Source of the DNA: Nitrospirales bacterium
GTDB lineage: Bacteria; Nitrospirota; Nitrospiria; Nitrospirales; UBA8639
NCBI GenBank assembly: GCA_963555755.3
Contig: OY820905.2
Span: 1,792,001 to 1,856,000 of the forward strand
Direction: 5' to 3'
DNA length: 64,000 nucleotides
Shown here: positions 22,024-32,888 of the stretch, piece by piece
How positions within the stretch are numbered: position 1 is the stretch's first letter
Layout: the number at the start of each line of letters is the position of its first letter
Program-made: the position numbers and the translations under genes
Notes under the pieces: model-generated
What the model saw: the letters and a program-made list of their open reading frames with translations, nothing else
Database searches by the model: none
What the model was told of the DNA's origin: nothing

Positions 22024-22880
22024 TGAAACAAAATCTAATCCTCGGCATATTAGGTGTATTCGTCTTGCTCATTATGTTGGGGGTATCCCCATTCTTTATT
22101 GTTGATCTGACGCAAACGGCCATCGTCGTCCAGCTTGGTGAACCCAAGCGAACCATCACCGAACCCGGCTTAAAGTTCAAGATTCCCTTCGTGCAAGAAG
22201 TCACCTATTTTGATAAACGACTCCTGGATTACGACGTCCCCGCTCGCGAGGTCATTACCAAAGACAAAAAGACTATTTTGATCGATAATTACGCCAAATG
22301 GAAAATCGTGGATCCCCTCCAAGTGTACAAATCATTCCAAACCCAACGGGGAGCGCTTCAACGATTGGACGATATCGTCTATTCCGAGCTTCGCGTGGAG
22401 CTAGGTGGCCATGAACTCCACGAAATTGTCTCCGCCAACCGGTTGGTGATCATGGCCAAGGTCGCACTACGAGCCAACGAAATAGCCAACAAATATGGCT
22501 TGGAAATCTTAGATGTCCGAATCAAACGCGCGGACCTGCCTGAGCAAAATGCCAAGGCCGTGTTTGATCGCATGCAAGCCGAACGGGAACGGATCGCCAA
22601 ACAGTATAAAGCCGAAGGCGCGGAAGAAGCGCAGAAAATTCGATCGGAAGCCGAAAAGGATCGCGCAATTCTTTTAGCCAATGCCTACAAAACGTCCCAA
22701 GAACTTCGCGGTGCGGGCGAGGCCAAAGCCTTCAAAATTTACGCCGATGCCTATCGGCAAGATCCCAAATTTTTTGAATTTATTCGGACCATGGAAGCCT
22801 ACGGTAAAGTCTTCTCCACAAACACCACCATGGTGCTCAGTCCCGATTCCGAGTTTTTGCGATACCTGAAAAAACGCTAA
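22023..22880 (+). CDS. hflC: FtsH protease modulator HflC
   Basis: DVRIKRADLP, RMQAERER, LSPDSEFLRY. Confidence 0.96.
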   Translation: MKQNLILGILGVFVLLIMLGVSPFFIVDLTQTAIVVQLGEPKRTITEPGLKFKIPFVQEVTYFDKRLLDYDVPAREVITKDKKTILIDNYAKWKIVDPLQVYKSFQTQRGALQRLDDIVYSELRVELGGHELHEIVSANRLVIMAKVALRANEIANKYGLEILDVRIKRADLPEQNAKAVFDRMQAERERIAKQYKAEGAEEAQKIRSEAEKDRAILLANAYKTSQELRGAGEAKAFKIYADAYRQDPKFFEFIRTMEAYGKVFSTNTTMVLSPDSEFLRYLKKR

Positions 22881-23043
22881 CCGCCTCGGTTTACAATTCA
22901 ACCTTCCTTCACATTCCGCCCTTGCTTGACCATCTCTTTTCAGGTTAAAACTCCAGCATGGCAAACCAAGGACATCAATAGGAAAAACTAGTAGAGACAC
23001 AAGTCAATCAGCCAGAAAAGTCCAAAATTCTTCCACACCAACC

Positions 23044-23313
23044 ATGCCTGAAATCGCTAGATTTTTTGGAATCATCATTCGAATGTATGTCGAACCAAGT
23101 GGCCCTCATCACCGACCACACTTTCATGCGTACTATCAAGAACATGTCGGAATTTATGCCATCGATGAAATCGAACTTCTCGCCGGCAGTCTTCCAGCTC
23201 GACAAGAACGTCTGGCTACAGCTTGGGCAGAAATCCATCAAGAAGAACTCTTAAATAACTGGAATGTCTTGCAGGCTGGTGCTCCTCCAAGTAAAATTGA
23301 ACCACTGCGGTAA
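23044..23313 (+). CDS. DUF4160 family putative toxin (DhiT-like)
   Basis: MPEIARFFGIIIRMY...HHRPHFHAYY...WAEIHQEELLNNW...KIEPLR. Confidence 0.9.
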   Translation: MPEIARFFGIIIRMYVEPSGPHHRPHFHAYYQEHVGIYAIDEIELLAGSLPARQERLATAWAEIHQEELLNNWNVLQAGAPPSKIEPLR

Positions 23314-23317
23314 CAAT

Positions 23318-23614
23318 ATGGCTCACTCAATCCATAAAGTCGTGAAGTTTGAAAAGGTGGCTCCGTTCACCCTCAACGTTGAATTTGAGGACGGCGCACA
23401 TCAGGTCATCGACTTTCAACCAGTTTTACGGGGAGAGGTATATGGACCGTTGAACGATGCACGTGTATTTGATCAGGCTTGTTTAGACGAAGAAGTCCAT
23501 ACTATCGTGTGGCCCAATGGAGCGGACTTTGATCCTGCCACACTCTATGATTGGCCTCAAGCCGGACCAAAACTTGAAGCGCTGACAAAATGCTGGAAAA
23601 CAAAGGTCGGATAG
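23318..23614 (+). CDS. DUF2442 family putative antitoxin (DhiA-like)
   Basis: LNVEFEDG, TIVWPNGADFDPATLY. Confidence 0.9.
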   Translation: MAHSIHKVVKFEKVAPFTLNVEFEDGAHQVIDFQPVLRGEVYGPLNDARVFDQACLDEEVHTIVWPNGADFDPATLYDWPQAGPKLEALTKCWKTKVG

Positions 23615-23768
23615 CCCACACCTCCCCTTGGTGCTCAGTCCCGATTCCGAGTTTTTGCGATACCTAAAAAAACGGTAACCGCGTCGGTTTTCACTTCATC
23701 CTCTCTCTTCAGCATTACACCACGTTTCATCCTTGCTTCACCGTCTCTTCTCACGTTAAAACAGTAAC

Positions 23769-24422
23769 ATGGCAAACCAAGAACATCTTGACCTCGTTCT
23801 TCAAGGGCTGGAGGTGTGGAATAAATTTCGGCGAACGCAGCCAGATGTCCACCCCGACCTCAGCGGTGCCGACCTGTCGGGGTATGACTTTACGCGAATG
23901 GATTTTTCGAAAACGGATTTTACCGGCGCGGATCTATCCGATGCCTACTTGCTTCGCGCCAATTTCGAAGAAGCCAACCTCACCGAAGTCAATCTCACAG
24001 AGGCAGATATTCTTGATGCCAATCTCATCAAAGCCGTGCTCACCAAAGCCACAATGGTGATGACCGACCTCAGTGGAACCGGCATGGTTCGTGCGGACCT
24101 CACAGGAGCTGACCTCTCGAAAGCCAACCTTACACGAACCGCCTTACCATGGGGAATACTGCGGGGATGCACACTCGTCGAAACCAATTTAAAATTGGCT
24201 GACCTCCGCGAAGCCGACCTCACAGATGCCGACCTTTCTCAAGCCAATCTCCAAGACGCGTCGCTCACAGGCACCATATTCAAAGGAGCCAATCTCCAAA
24301 CCACCAAAAACATTTCGCTGGAACTCTTAGGCAAAACCAGCACTCTTCACAATGCCCAACTCGATTCAGAGATTAAAAAAGAAATTGAGAAGAGCTATTC
24401 TCACCTCCTAAAGGACGCTTAG
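23769..24422 (+). CDS. Pentapeptide repeat protein
   Basis: MANQEHL..L.QG..VWN; tandem A(D/N)Lxx repeats. Confidence 0.93.
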   Translation: MANQEHLDLVLQGLEVWNKFRRTQPDVHPDLSGADLSGYDFTRMDFSKTDFTGADLSDAYLLRANFEEANLTEVNLTEADILDANLIKAVLTKATMVMTDLSGTGMVRADLTGADLSKANLTRTALPWGILRGCTLVETNLKLADLREADLTDADLSQANLQDASLTGTIFKGANLQTTKNISLELLGKTSTLHNAQLDSEIKKEIEKSYSHLLKDA

Positions 24423-24584
24423 CACCCAACCGTCATTTCGTTTCCTTCTGTCATTTCGACCAGCGGGAGAAATCTTGTCGCCTCAACGTTAGTTCCCTAT
24501 TCTATGGGGCAAAGATTTCTCTTTCTCTTCGAAAGTACATTTGAAGTGATATAGGGTTGGCATAGTCTATCTGTCATTTTTTTA

Positions 24585-24780
24585 TGCGGGGTTTCGTCCC
24601 CACACGACGAGGTCCTTTTGTTTCGGCAAAAGGACCCAAAACCATTTTCGCCCGTGCGCGGCCCCTCTGGGGAAACTTCGCTGCCAGGCCGAATCAAATG
24701 GCTCGGAAACTCGCTCCGCTCAAACAGTCCTCGCCGAAATGCCGGATTTGGCCTGGCAGCGAAGCCGCGCACGAAGGCGG
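24585..24780 (+). repeat. Structured repeat family K, uninterrupted copy
   Basis: Conserved motifs shared with the copies at 16893 and 58400. Confidence 0.8.
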
Positions 24781-25386
24781 GGGAAATACTTAAGAAACAA
24801 ATCAAGTAAAATGGAGGGGTGAAAGGCAAACCCAATTAAAACTCAATAGTCAGTGTTTAAAGGGCTTTCATGGCCAAAAGGCAGGTTCCATGTAACAGTA
24901 TTGGGTATACTGTTACATTTTCTTTTAAATTGAAATCTTAAGGTGGGTAGATCCCCCGGCAAAGGTGGGGATGTTGTGGAAGCCGCCGAATTGGCCCGGG
25001 CTATTTTCCATCGCCTGAATCTGCCTTAGTAGAATGCCACCCTGCTTCCAAGAAATCCATCATGGCCTGCGGGATTTGTGCGCCGGACTTATCCTTGAGG
25101 GACTCTTGGAGATCGTCAGGCAGTGGAATAGCATGCTTCCGGAAAAAACTTTCAAATTCGGAATAGAGATCATTCAACCAAATTTCGGTCCTTTCCTCCT
25201 GGCTCCCAAAAAACTGGAGATGCTTCGAACTTATTGGTGATTCCCTCTGGTAATGAAAGGTCGCGTTTCGAAACAACCTGAGTTTGTCTACGAAGGGGGA
25301 ATGGAGAAGCTGGTCTATCTTGGGATCACTTAGCTTCAGATCCTTCCAGCCCTCAATCACGAGGTAAATTCCTGAATATGAGTACA

Positions 25387-26398
25387 TATGCCTTCCCATT
25401 TGACTAAGGTTAGTCCCTAGACTAGTCTGCTGGACTATGGACACAGGGTATGCTGCTGATATCTTGGATTTTTCTGTTAGGTTCCACACCGAAGAAGCGT
25501 GCTTCGAGTACTTGCGGGCGATTCGGTGGCCAGACGGGTTTATGTGTCCAGCTTGCGGTCATCGCGGTGGTTGGTGGCTCAAAAAATATTTCCGGTTTGA
25601 GTGTTCGTCGTGTCATAGACAGACATCACCGCTAAGCGGCACAGTGATGCATAGATCGCACTTGCCGCTACGGCTTTGGTTTTGGGCTGCCTATTTCGTC
25701 TCCACGCACACACCTGGCATCAGTGCTGTGCAATTGCAGCGTCAACTCAGTATCAAGAAGGTGGATAGCGCCTGGTATTTGCTCCACAGATTGCGACGAG
25801 GAATGGTACGACAGAACCGTGAACGGCTCGCAGGAACAGTTGAAGCCGATGAAACCCATATCGGTGGACCGGTAAAAGGCAAAACGGGCCGTGGCGTCGC
25901 GAAAGCGAAAACCAAGACGTTAATAGCCGGAGCCGTAGAAATTGTCACGTACACACAAGGGGATCACTTTCGAGAGAAAGCAGGGCGTTTACGATTAGCG
26001 ATTCTTCAAGACGCTGGAGAGAACGAGATCAAAGCATTCCTCAATAGCCATGTCGCTGAGGGCAGTAAGATCAAGTCCGATGGTTGGAAGGGATACTCGG
26101 CAAAAGCCTTGGCAGGATACGAACACCTGAGACGGACCCAGGGTGACCCAGCAAGTGCTGGGAAGCACGCTCCACACATCCATAGAGCGTTCGGCAATCT
26201 GCAGACCTGGCTGAACGGGATTCACCATGGAGTGGATTCAAAATACCTGCAACACTATCTTGATGAGTTTGTCTTTCGCTATAACCGCCGTGAGACTCCA
26301 ATGAGTACCTTCCAGAGTTTGTTGAAAATCCTGACCAGCAGCTCAAAACCCTTGGGATTCAATAAACTGAAGCAACCTTAGTTAAATGGGAAGGCATA
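25387..26398 (+). mobile_element. IS1595 family element, copy 2
   Basis: Same IRs as copy 1; TSD TGAGTACA. Confidence 0.95.
25437..26381 (+). CDS. IS1595 family transposase
   Basis: Protein identical to 9072-10016. Confidence 0.95.
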   Translation: MDTGYAADILDFSVRFHTEEACFEYLRAIRWPDGFMCPACGHRGGWWLKKYFRFECSSCHRQTSPLSGTVMHRSHLPLRLWFWAAYFVSTHTPGISAVQLQRQLSIKKVDSAWYLLHRLRRGMVRQNRERLAGTVEADETHIGGPVKGKTGRGVAKAKTKTLIAGAVEIVTYTQGDHFREKAGRLRLAILQDAGENEIKAFLNSHVAEGSKIKSDGWKGYSAKALAGYEHLRRTQGDPASAGKHAPHIHRAFGNLQTWLNGIHHGVDSKYLQHYLDEFVFRYNRRETPMSTFQSLLKILTSSSKPLGFNKLKQP

Positions 26399-26519
26399 TG
26401 AGTACATTAAGTAAATCCCTGGGGGAAAACAAAGGAAAACCTCTAAGCCCAGTTTTTCGTTGCTTACTATTTGCAACCAATCTTCATTCATTTCTCGACA
26501 ATACAAAACCCGCATGTGT

Positions 26520-27801
26520 GAGAGAAGGACCCGGAAAAATTGACACTGTCTTAAGTGGATAGGTAGACCTGTTTCAATCATCTTCATGTCCTTTACAGGA
26601 GCTTATCATGAGTAGACGAATCCGACGAAATCACCAACCTGCATGCAAGGCGAAAGTGGCGCTTGCTGCCCTGAAGGGCGATTTTACCACTGCCGAATGA
26701 GCGAAGAAATTTGAGGTCCACGCGAACCAGATCTCCCCATGGAAAACACAGCTACTAGAGAAGGCACCCGGAGTCTTTGATGAGAAGTGGCGCGAGACAG
26801 GCCCTCCCGTTGAGGTGAAAACCCTGCATGCCAAGATCGGGCAACTGACGTTAGAGAATGATTTTTTAGAAGGCGCGCTCGGCAAGGCCGGACTCCTGAG
26901 CGCAAGGCCATGATCGACCGGAACCATGCACTCCCCGTATCGCACCAAGCCAAGATACTCGGATTATCGAGAGGTTGTCTCTATTATCAACCTGTCCCCC
27001 TCAGTGAGCGTGACCTTGCGTTGATGCATCGTCTGGATACACTGCATCTGGCCCACCCGTTTGCCGGGTCGCGTATGTTGAGAGATTTGCTCCAATTGGA
27101 GGGCTCCAGCGTTGGGCGCACACACGTGAGAACCCTGCTGAAGCGGATGGGCATCGAAGCCCTCTATCGCCAGCCCAGGACGACTCAGAGGCATCGAGGA
27201 CACGCCGTATATCCGTACTTACTCAGGAATCTATCCATTACGCGGCCCAATCAGGTGAGGGCCTCGGATGTCAGCTACCTTCCGATAGCCCATGGATTTG
27301 TCTATCTGACGGTCAGGCTAGACAGGTATAGTCGCCGAGTCCTGTCATGGCGTGTGTCGGTAACGATGGATGGGGAATGTATCATGGATGCCTTGGAAGA
27401 GGCGATTGAGAAATATGGCTGTCCAGCAATCATGAACACGGATCAAGGCAGGCAATATACCAGTGAGCGATTCATCCAAGCGCTCAAGGAGCGAGATATT
27501 CAAATGAGCATGGACGGCAAAGGAGCCTGGCGTGACAACATTTTCGTTGAACGCCTGTGGCGATCAGTCAAATATGAGGATATGTACTTACATGCCTATG
27601 AGACGCCGAATGAGGTCAAACAAGGCCTGAAACGGTATTTTCAATTCTACAATACCAGTCGTCCACATCAAGCCCATACGGACCAGACACCTGATACGGC
27701 GTATTTCAACCTGTTGCCTGTAGCCGAGGTAGCATAATTCATTGGGATACTTTCCACTTAAGACTTGGCTTGGGGTGTTCAGATAAACGGGACCACCTCT
27801 A
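26520..27801 (+). mobile_element. IS3 family element, decayed (orfA 26608-26913 with TGA at 26698; orfB 26910-27737)
   Basis: KAKVALAAL and LHAKIGQLTLENDFL in orfA; YPYLLRNL, NTDQG, MDGKGAWRDNIFVERLWRSVKYE in orfB; imperfect IRs. Confidence 0.88.
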
Positions 27802-27831
27802 ACTACAATTAAAGAGAAAGAAGGGAACGAC

Positions 27832-28097
27832 CTAGTGTTTAGAGTCAGGGTTGTTGCTTCGTCGGATGACGACGATGCGGCCGAGGAGATGATTGGGCGG
27901 GTTTACGGATGTTTCGATTAAATCGATTCGAGAGCCTACGCCTTGGAGTATGCGAAGGCCTTGGGAGGTTTGGACGAAGCCTTTGGCTCGGAGGGCTTGA
28001 TGGGATTGGATTTGTTTAATGAGGGTGTCGGGATCAATGCCGGGGTCTAGCTGGATTTCTTCAGATTCAAAGGCCTCGTAGGTATGAGGGAATTGCT
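27832..28097 (-). pseudogene. Orphan diverged copy of the last ~87 codons of cobW
   Basis: Open frame QFPHTYEAFESEEIQLDPGIDPDTLIKQIQSHQALRAKGFVQ...RRSNNPDSKH*; 13 amino-acid differences from 28775-29040. Confidence 0.85.
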
Positions 28098-28144
28098 ATA
28101 TTTCTTCCTAGAAGATAAGCTTTATCTCTGCCTGGAGGTGAATC

Positions 28145-28375
28145 ATGAATTGGGAAGAGCGGATACAGGTTGATCCAAATGTTCTTGTGGGGAAACCCGT
28201 GATAAAGGGGACACGCTTGGCGGTTGAGTTTATCATCGACCTCTTAGCTCAAGGATGGACCGAAAAGCAGATACAGGAGAATTATCCTGGCATTACTCAT
28301 GAAGACATTCAAGCCTGTCTTGCTTACGCCAGCGCTATCTTGCATGCCGAACGGGTTTTCCCCCTACCGACTTGA
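28145..28375 (+). CDS. DUF433 antitoxin
   Basis: RIQVDPNVLVGKPVIKGTRL...YPGITHEDIQACLAYA. Confidence 0.93.
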   Translation: MNWEERIQVDPNVLVGKPVIKGTRLAVEFIIDLLAQGWTEKQIQENYPGITHEDIQACLAYASAILHAERVFPLPT

Positions 28376-28378
28376 CCC

Positions 28379-28744
28379 GTGCGCATTCTTGCCAATGAAA
28401 ATGTGCCAGGTGAGATTGTTCAGGCACTAAGAGATCGAGACCATGATGTCAGCTGGATACGAATTGATGCTCCTGGAAGTGTGGACACCGAAGTACTTTC
28501 CCGCGCTCAAACAGAAGATCGCCTCCTCTTAACCTTTGATAAGGATTTCGGAGAACTTGCCTTCCGATGGGGACTCCAAGTCTCTAGTGGCATTATTCTT
28601 ATTCGTCTCTCTGCTCCTTCCCCCACCCAACTTCAACAATCAGTGATTTCCGCACTCGAAAGCCGAGATGATTGGGCCGGAATGTTTTCAGTTATTGAAA
28701 CAAGCCGAATCCGTACCACACCCTTACCTCCACAGGTCAAATAA
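28379..28744 (+). CDS. DUF5615 PIN-like toxin
   Basis: MRILANENV, LLTFDKDFGELAF. Confidence 0.92.
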   Translation: MRILANENVPGEIVQALRDRDHDVSWIRIDAPGSVDTEVLSRAQTEDRLLLTFDKDFGELAFRWGLQVSSGIILIRLSAPSPTQLQQSVISALESRDDWAGMFSVIETSRIRTTPLPPQVK

Positions 28745-28774
28745 CTCGTCAATCCCTGGATAGAAGGAAACAGT

Positions 28775-29689
28775 CTAGTGTGTTGAATCTGGTTTGGTGC
28801 TTCTTCGAATGACGACGATGCGGTTGAGGAGATGGGCTGGGGGATTTACGGTGGTTTCGATTAGGTCGATTCGAGAGCCTACGCCTTGAAGTATGCGAAG
28901 GCCTTGGGAGGTTTGGACGAAGCCTTTGGCTCGGAGGGCTTGGTGGGATTGGACTTGCTTGATAAGGGTTTCCGGATCGATACCGGGCGCTATTTGGATT
29001 TCTTCAGATTCAAAGGCCTCATGGGTATGCGATACCTGTTGATCGCGCTGGTGTTTGGCCTGAGTCTCCGGGTCTGGAGTAAATAAGACTTTGGACTCGA
29101 CATTTGCATTGGTGGCACGAATGAGTGGAGTGCCCGGGGCCATGTGCTCTAATTGTTTCTCAATCAGATCGAGTTGATCGGCCTCGATCAAATCAATTTT
29201 ATTGACGATGAGGAGATCTGCCGATGACACTTGTTGCTCGAAGGTTCCGCTTAAGTCACGCCCTTCTGCAACTTGTTCGGCATTGACTACGACCACCGTA
29301 ATACTATCGCCTACCCATTCAGTCACCGGTTCTCGCCAAAAATTGATAAGCGTTTCGAACGGTAAGGCCACGCCTGAGGTTTCAACGACAATCCGATCTG
29401 GCTGAACCTCTTCCCACAGTTGCTGTAAGGTCTTCACTAACTCATCGGACAGCTTACAGCAGACACAGCCGCCTTCCAATTCGACATAGCTGTTGGAGCC
29501 TTGATTGCCCAGCAATGCCTGATCAATGCCTAAGGCCCCGAATTCGTTCGATACGATTGCCAGTCGCAATCCTTGACGTTGTGCGTCCTTGAGAAGATGT
29601 TGAACGAGTGTGGTTTTACCCGCCCCTAAGAATCCTGACACGACGAGGGCGGGAATACCGGCGAGAGGAGCAGGCTGTGGGTTCTTCAT
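28775..29689 (-). CDS. CobW/COG0523 GTP-binding metallochaperone
   Basis: GFLGAGKTT, NEFG, GCVCC, ETSG, NKID. Confidence 0.93.
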   Translation of the reverse strand: MKNPQPAPLAGIPALVVSGFLGAGKTTLVQHLLKDAQRQGLRLAIVSNEFGALGIDQALLGNQGSNSYVELEGGCVCCKLSDELVKTLQQLWEEVQPDRIVVETSGVALPFETLINFWREPVTEWVGDSITVVVVNAEQVAEGRDLSGTFEQQVSSADLLIVNKIDLIEADQLDLIEKQLEHMAPGTPLIRATNANVESKVLFTPDPETQAKHQRDQQVSHTHEAFESEEIQIAPGIDPETLIKQVQSHQALRAKGFVQTSQGLRILQGVGSRIDLIETTVNPPAHLLNRIVVIRRSTKPDSTH

Positions 29690-29722
29690 GGTTGGTTAAT
29701 CAATCGAGGCAAAGGGTCCCAT

Positions 29723-29853
29723 AAACTCGAAATCCGAATATTGAAATCCGAAACAAATCAGAATTTCAAAACTCGAATGCTTCAAACGGATCTTGAAAAC
29801 TCGGAATCAAAATTTACGGTTGTTTCGGATTTCGACATTCGAGTTTCGAATTT
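29723..29853. repeat. Heptamer-type inverted repeat, second copy
   Basis: Left arm closely matches 2075-2147. Confidence 0.8.
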
Positions 29854-29862
29854 AGGACGCTT

Positions 29863-32329: not shown

Positions 32330-32413
32330 CAATACACCATGAACAGATGATCCTGATCTTGTCAAGAAAGGGTAAGACGTCTGAATCCCCATCGTGCTAT
32401 ACTGAAGGCATTG

Positions 32414-32845
32414 AACCTAGAAATGGAAGTTGGGCACAAAAAAGACGTGTAAGATATTGGTGTGCATGGTGAAATATAAAAAATCGTGGTCACCTCTGGG
32501 GTGATGAGACATTTTTATATTTTACCAGGTGCGCTCAGGGTCCGTCACGAAATAACCGGTACAATTGGGAGGCCCAGATTTGTGATCGGGGCAAGGCGCG
32601 ACGAGGGAGCAGAGCGGGGCTCTGTGACCGAGGAGCAACGCCGCCCCGGGCCAAAGATGGGCCTCCCCGAGGGCCGGACGCTTTTGGGCTCCGCCCGCGT
32701 CGCTCATCGCTTCCATACTCCCGGTATGCGCGCTCTTCGCTCCTTGGCTCGCTCCAAAATCGTCTCGGCCAATTGTCCCGGTTATTTCGTGACGGACCCT
32801 AAGAGCTTGCGCGGACTTTTGTGATCCAACTGCCGTTTCTAGGTT
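32414..32845. repeat. MITE family D with nested MITE family C (32538-32799)
   Basis: Family D halves match 19678-19844; insert has TIR GGGTCCGTCACGAAATAACCGG.ACAATTGG. Confidence 0.88.
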
Positions 32846-32888
32846 GAACATTGAAACCACAAAATTTACTCATGATCGATATACACCA

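Follow-up and report, generated by a model that had tools for sequence, protein, structure and literature searches.

Small chromosomal toxin-antitoxin (TA) pairs are often found without a visible vehicle. The question of how such a pair reaches its place in a genome is raised by a locus within the window that we analysed, a stretch of 64,000 nucleotides from a Nitrospirales bacterium, in which a DUF433/DUF5615 gene pair lies behind the gene cobW, between the working 3' end of that gene and an orphan second copy of the same end. TA pairs are described as highly mobile (PMC2701414) and DUF433-PIN pairs are established TA systems (PMC3834315, PMC2701414, PMC5499597).

The bracketing proposed in the initial annotation was recovered: the two copies of the tail form a direct repeat of 271 nt (27816-28086 and 28759-29029, 85% identical, offset 943 bp), which is two-copy across the 4.6-Mb genome. 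The host gene is on the minus strand and has orthologue-level matches in 40 of the 61 genomes searched (E < 1e-100), and the pair is on the plus strand. The ~0.67 kb between the repeats contains the DUF433 and DUF5615 genes only, without a mobility gene; no recombinase was found there (the longest other frame is 60 aa), and the 16 tyrosine-recombinase matches of the genome all lie ~400 kb or more from the cobW locus. For these two ranges the earlier statement that no integrase is present thus holds; adjoining the orphan, however, is an element of IS3 type that has an rve domain and starts 15 nt from the repeat end. The features are listed below; the relatives referred to are a same-genus species (G006, CobW 92% identical) and two cobW contigs, L113 (from a metagenome) and L114.

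26521-27800, plus strand: degenerate IS3-type element adjoining the flank of the orphan, a neighbour outside the unit (rve domain; ends taken from loose ends; stop in orfA).
27801-27831, minus strand: native flank on the downstream side, in which the empty-site sequence of G006 and L114 carries on up to the IS3 cut (92% over 64 nt including the gene end).
27832-28089, minus strand: orphan cobW tail, with foreign-like front and native-like back plus stop (comparison with G006; CobW_C match).
28089-28144, no strand: upstream region of the pair and novel junction 28089/28090, fused to mid-cobW (end of the L113 match).
28145-28375, plus strand: DUF433 (COG2442), predicted antitoxin, 76 aa (Pfam E 3.9e-25; PDB 2ga1 E 1.1e-6).
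28379-28744, plus strand: DUF5615, PIN-like predicted toxin, 121 aa, convergent with cobW (Pfam E 3.6e-24).
28775-29032, minus strand: working cobW tail, with native-like front and foreign-like last ~63 nt plus stop (comparison with G006).
28845-28942, minus strand: putative crossover zone in the working copy, partner 27902-27999 (switch positions versus G006, L114 and L113).
28775-29689, minus strand: cobW, intact host gene for a COG0523-type GTPase, 304 aa (Pfam cobW E 2.5e-49, and CobW_C).

With respect to the pair itself, DUF433 is encoded directly upstream of DUF5615 in 80 of 80 relatives (the gap here being 3 nt), and in the predicted toxin the acidic residues E7, D54, D56 and E59 are invariant in all 80, with D36 present in 79; these residues would be the catalytic ones. 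Position 6 is N here, as it is in 56 of the 80 relatives, with D in 23. A comparison of the toxin sequence with the PDB gave no match. The Synechocystis vapBC10-type PIN-COG2442 systems, as far as the available part of their description goes (PMC3834315), share the DUF433 gene directly upstream of a PIN-like gene as well as the conserved acidic residues; the toxin here is a DUF5615 protein with N at position 6. A contig from an RNA run spans 28144-28975 and gives a weak hint that the region is transcribed; a scan for promoters and terminators gave a signal not above that of shuffles.

Over the 87 codons (267 nt) that had originally been compared, neither an indel nor an internal stop occurs in the orphan, and the two tails differ at 43 nucleotides (split 11/5/27 by codon position) and, as counted before, at 13 amino acids. 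True homology, however, begins at 28089, so that the orphan consists of 85 codons plus the stop (27832-28089) with 12 amino-acid differences. The dN/dS between the working and the orphan tail is 0.155, and the observed split departs (binomial p 0.003) from the ratio of ~0.55 expected had one copy been neutral after duplication in place, an expectation that is our own estimate and assumes ~0.1 for the working copy. Plain duplication with decay is therefore rejected, in agreement with the view that the orphan is not a decaying duplicate. The orphan was also considered as an expressed small gene, which was ruled out since it contains no in-frame ATG, GTG or TTG.

The origin of the two copies becomes apparent in the comparison with relatives. 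Both G006 and L114 carry a single cobW and no pair, i.e. the empty site that had been anticipated exists. At informative sites along the repeat these sequences match the working copy at 18 of 22 front sites (the orphan at 4) and the orphan at 14 of 15 back sites (the working copy at 1), a single switch with a permutation p of 0.001. Relative to G006, nt 1-90 contain 4 differences in the working copy and 15 in the orphan and nt 189-251 contain 16 and 3, respectively, and beyond the stop codon G006 and L114 keep matching the orphan up to the IS3 element. Each tail is on this comparison part native and part foreign, in reciprocal order, and the two are chimeras of the kind that one crossover would leave. 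The idea that the tail alleles stem from another lineage is thereby upheld to the extent that foreign parts are seen, but these are not two whole alleles; in the same vein, the proposal that a single crossover swapped the gene end agrees with the reciprocal chimerism and the one switch, but the swapped part of the working gene would comprise only about the last 63-160 nt.

Against L113 the ratio of sites matching the working copy to sites matching the orphan is 15:2 and then 7:12 (p 0.01), and at the final 5 informative sites it is the working tail that agrees with L113; the distant relatives L117 and G002 showed no significant switch at cobW. The switch is located at 28852-28844 versus G006 and L114, and at 28889-28865 versus L113, and because the interval varies with the sister used the crossover can be placed only within 28845-28942. 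A 77-nt block inside this zone (nt 91-167) has 1 mismatch between the copies (Fisher p 6e-6 versus the rest) and is native-like in both of them; judged by its sequence it may have been homogenised, like a heteroduplex or a later conversion tract. The patchy alleles, the native-like middle block and the moving switch point imply that extra conversion must be assumed. Foreign differences extend to within 10 nt of the junction, and the foreign front of the orphan consequently arrived attached to it. The donor cobW allele was not found among 26 metagenome loci or 61 genomes, and no second cobW tail was present in the other 60 genomes searched. As a separate observation, G006 (L002 2400-2436) and L114 have a 1-nt insertion just before the cobW stop, which lengthens the protein by 8 residues.

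The spot behind cobW is found in a third state as well. Contig L113 carries cobW followed by the same pair (89% nt) and no orphan; its match to the window stops at 28089, the exact orphan start, after which G006-like downstream DNA resumes. At the novel junction (28089/28090) ~1-2 nt are shared. Over the 5' part of cobW, this genome resembles L113 more closely than it does G006 (95.1% versus 90.8%) and, as L113 already carries the pair, the pair may predate the orphan; the cobW tail of L113 is itself a mosaic. Other cargo occupies the same position elsewhere, namely a VapBC-like pair in L115 and a gene of 293 aa in G002 and G003, and the spot behind cobW is a cargo hot spot in the genus. In G006 the empty site is followed by an AAA_15-type ATPase gene (L002 2818-3901), possibly part of a defence system and putatively of an OLD/Gabija-like family.

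The single cobW of a relative resembles one copy at its front and the other at its back, and for this reason the likely mode of entry of the pair is ordinary homologous recombination, with no integrase involved. We consider it probable that a ~0.94-kb end-joined donor DNA, composed of the cobW tail with its stop, the pair and the region upstream of the pair, crossed into the resident cobW in this way. The fusion of the pair's far end to mid-cobW, with almost no shared sequence, would have arisen in a related donor lineage, either as a circle or as a tandem-duplication junction, which are indistinguishable here; among the contigs of the public runs, which end within the block shared by both copies, neither a circle nor an excised form was seen. 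Such donor DNA would then have been taken up, perhaps through natural transformation (the genome has comEC and dprA), and one homologous crossover within the conserved cobW tail would have integrated it. The resulting order is the one observed: an intact cobW with native front and foreign end, the cargo, the orphan with foreign front and native end, and the native flank.

Tail repeats of this type recur throughout the genome. The main contig contains 1488 local direct repeats, and among those of low copy number that extend across a gene end, with an orphan as the result, 39 are of tail type and 6 of head type (genes being taken from a simple gene finder of our own, with some rows paralogous or overlapping). 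A genome scan for repeat-flanked TA pairs, as had been suggested, yielded many more cases. It covered 81 markers from seven TA families (of the PIN rows, a 347-aa ORF and a row on contig 2 were dropped): 16 of these, about a fifth, are bracketed by gene-tail repeats at 15 hosts and 65 are not, compared with 5 of 300 random small genes (two of which are themselves toxins; Fisher p 4e-8) and 1 of 300 large genes (p 7e-11), or 6/600 controls in total. The cargo of the tail repeats includes MazEF, HigBA, VapBC, FitAB, ParDE, HicA, BrnTA, MNT-HEPN, DUF4160/2442, AbiEii and three DUF433/DUF5615 pairs, and the hosts (names inferred from Pfam domains) include nuoN, metG, der, bioB, putA, acs, ccmH, a TolC-family gene and citrate synthase. 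A DEAD-box helicase and a DUF3015 gene with an Lnb-like gene are bracketed as well, which indicates that the route is general and that TA pairs are its commonest passengers here. For 23 tail pairs that we selected, with lengths of 43-2176 bp, the pooled pS is 0.186 and the pooled pN 0.028 (pN/pS 0.15), and 18 of them are free of indels and stops. Inspection of the 23 junctions by eye revealed no common motif, and most other units with annotated cargo have no transposase.

The working-then-orphan switch relative to G006 was found at 6 of 8 loci of our choosing (p up to 0.05), i.e. at cobW, DLH, nuoN, der, an ABC permease and one ccmH orphan; it was absent at bioB (p 0.15) and a 1232-aa host (p 0.77), as well as at the second ccmH orphan (p 0.44), and the 1232-aa host does show it relative to G005. 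Pooled over loci, the working copy is matched at 106 of 155 sites in the first halves and at 70 of 158 in the second halves, where sites within one locus are not independent. Not included, as there was no usable sister orthologue, were tolC, an fdhF-like gene and citrate synthase, and hflC was not found in G006 or G005. At the ABC-permease locus the orphan front resembles the alleles of G002 and G003, and the cargo and the flank of the working copy match G002, so that both foreign parts point to one donor clade, G002/G003. For the 1232-aa host all three states (empty, cargo without repeat, cargo with repeat) are present. The window itself contains a second unit:

22828-23787, plus strand: hflC tail repeat (22828-22976 and 23626-23787, 81%) around a DUF4160/DUF2442 pair.

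Here the duplication runs from the hflC tail through intergenic DNA up to the initial codons of a pentapeptide gene, and in relatives hflC is directly followed by the pentapeptide gene. Elsewhere on the main contig, three orphan ccmH tails are stacked between cargo blocks at 2716245-2721457, much like a cassette array (the blocks holding two transposases with a HigA-like gene and then ParDE); at 4300561-4305680, behind a probable carB, two nested tail repeats surround carbamoyltransferase, GDSL-like and SxtJ-family genes; and at der the duplicated segment extends into a high-copy palindromic dispersed repeat.

Tail duplications are also found in the relatives. The tails of hosts are duplicated in G002, G003 and G006 with other lengths and mostly other cargo: the ccmH tail in G006 (around VapBC and ParDE) and in G003, the ABC-permease tail over 103 bp here, 68 bp in G002 and 282 bp in G003, and the bioB tail over 285 bp here and 221 bp, with other cargo, in G003. 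The different repeat lengths at one host speak for independent events and disfavour a fixed attachment site. In G002, a tal-pgi fusion, a sigma-54 activator (stacked twice) and a GH15 hydrolase have duplicated tails. An automated tail test on hand-picked markers flagged 5/28 in G002, 3/9 in G003 and 0/7 in G006, numbers from which no rate can be derived, as the test overlooked known cases and some host ORFs that it flagged appear to be spurious. Of the DUF5615 loci in other phyla with flanks of at least 1.5 kb, 22 of 58 have some bracketing repeat, a count that may include dispersed repeats and repeats other than gene tails.

We tentatively extend the homologous-recombination reading to the genus, where it is conceivable, if somewhat short of probable, that TA pairs spread between species as recombinase-free tail cassettes, with a 3' gene end as homing arm, host recombination for entry, loop-out for loss, and swaps of core-protein C-termini as a result. 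Tails would serve as anchors because their coding sequence is alike across lineages and a crossover within them leaves the gene whole. Inserts would collapse again via recombination between the repeats, and TA cargo would persist because cells losing it are poisoned, which would explain the enrichment of TA pairs. If the cassette reading is true, the C-termini of CobW, NuoN, BioB, CcmH and MetG have been swapped between lineages, such that addiction modules may drive the replacement of core-protein ends.

Several other explanations bear on the same observations. A direct repeat is what a plain tandem duplication with decay would leave, or a chimeric assembly of two strains, and the contigs of the public runs do break inside the block that is identical between the copies. 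Yet a contig covering 27970-28919 was present in all three DNA-like runs examined (drawn from 23 runs listed), with 0 differences and a depth like that of the flanks (50 versus 61, 235 versus 236 and 22.5 versus 21), which answers the concern about a two-strain co-assembly; the runs may derive from the source culture, so that a mixture is excluded there and a wide occurrence is not implied. With the dN/dS of ~0.15, the absence of lesions and the reciprocal chimerism added, this explanation is very improbable. That the adjacent IS3 element caused the duplication is suggested by its proximity to the repeat end, but we give it hardly any credence: the element interrupts the native flank and does not bound the repeat, its orfA has a stop, transposases are missing from most of the other cargo-annotated units, and the foreign alleles would go unexplained. 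The unit could also be the remnant of an integrase-driven island at the cobW 3' end, like e14 in icd, whose integrase is gone, or a satellite that was mobilised in trans; the anatomy is the same as that of icd/icdC in the accessible description (PMC13626634), the switch versus G006 falls within a 7-nt interval, and the genome does encode tyrosine recombinases. We judge this improbable in view of the at least 15 host genes with repeats of 43-2176 bp and no common motif, the different orphan lengths at the same host in different species, the lack of a second cobW tail in the other 60 genomes searched, and the cargo without any repeat in L113. A site-specific attachment site is not supported, as the 7-nt interval is not reproduced with L113 and a junction motif is absent by eye.

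A more serious contender has the pair already in place behind cobW, as in L113, with the orphan added later on linear DNA from an empty-site lineage that was anchored downstream and joined illegitimately, after which patching made the mosaics. Homology-facilitated illegitimate recombination, in which a homology anchor on one side is combined with an illegitimate join on the other, is a known process. In line with it, the sequence closest to this genome in the cobW 5' part, L113, has the pair but no repeat and agrees with the working tail at the latter's last 5 informative sites; in addition, hardly any sequence is shared at the junction, and the genome has comEC and dprA. On the other hand, the orphan is not of one lineage (its front differs from G006 at 15/90 nt and its back at 3/63), the pair has diverged more from L113 (89%) than has the host gene (95%), the direction of the switch is the same at 6/8 loci, and at the ABC locus the orphan front and the cargo share a donor clade. 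On balance we hold this course of events to be unlikely, and entry of the pair with the donor tail remains the preferred reading.

The cobW unit works like an insertion with long target duplication, as a variant of that class. For restriction-modification genes such insertions were treated by Furuta, Abe and Kobayashi (2010; PMC2853133; see also Nobusato 2000), who, in the part of their paper that is available, suggest DNA double-strand breakage as a common cause, leave the mechanism open and propose a release-and-reinfect cycle without evidence for its steps. The cases described there and those reported here have in common an addictive cargo, the lack of mobility genes, long direct repeats of variable length that often span a start or stop codon, and an empty site in relatives; the hosts in that study are mostly naturally competent, and comEC and dprA occur here. 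The cobW repeat is longer than 30 bp (271 bp) and single in G006 and L114, and its insert is below 20 kb (~0.67 kb) and free of mobility genes. In contrast, the cargo is a TA-type pair and not a set of restriction and modification genes, and each copy matches the sister only partly, unlike target copies. Further differences from the cases in the available text are that TA pairs of at least ten families are involved, at no fewer than 15 hosts in one genome, that PIN-type RNases would not supply the double-strand breaks, and that the repeats show divergence (mostly 80-98% identity), a synonymous bias and reciprocal chimerism, although the supplements of that paper may show diverged repeats. Reciprocal chimerism means that half of the 'duplication' was imported and not copied. 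A virus-like cycle has been proposed for addiction modules flanked by repeats; if the cassette reading is true, the scars would provide evidence from sequence for its invasion step. In a single genome, about one fifth of the markers bear a scar from which donor, recipient and crossover can be read, and the empty, donor-like and inserted states in relatives make the mechanism of long-target-duplication insertions testable. Our search for a paper describing the capture of TA pairs by tail repeats covered the open-access literature, with most subscription papers outside it, and found none.

Two other systems are comparable in part. In E. coli, according to the accessible text of PMC13626634, icd harbours the 15-kb prophage e14 with the icdC pseudogene, and e14 excises site-specifically; as here, a 3' end borne by the element completes the host gene and an orphan tail is found on the far side, and excision of e14 makes a chimeric gene. 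Unlike e14, the unit at cobW is below 1 kb and contains no recombinase, the nearest tyrosine recombinases being ~400 kb off, and there are many hosts and variable ends; with regard to a fixed core, the switch interval is 7 nt versus G006 and a different one versus L113. The unconventional circularizable structures, as far as PMC7843796 is available, likewise lack a recombinase gene and have long direct repeats containing gene sequence, and host-driven looping out was reported for them, with circles detected. Those structures carry resistance genes between near-identical repeats and are mostly inside mobile elements, whereas the repeats here are diverged tails of chromosomal core genes.

Finally, some features of the surroundings are worth recording. 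The IS3-type element at 26521-27800 lacks 2 nt at 27285 relative to a diverged copy in the public runs. Among those runs, some of marine origin contain about a fifth of the sequence words. An IS1595-family element at 25385-26400 has 27-bp inverted ends and more than 30 near-identical copies in the genome. Past both IS elements, the 33 nt at 24889-24921 match (82%) sequence that follows cobW in G006 and may be left over from the original flank; a 162-aa ORF without Pfam match (25001-25489) lies between the IS1595 element and the pentapeptide gene. High-copy palindromic dispersed repeats occur at 24576-24810, 29722-29854 and 32410-32850 of the window, and ~16% of the main contig is sequence with four or more extra copies.
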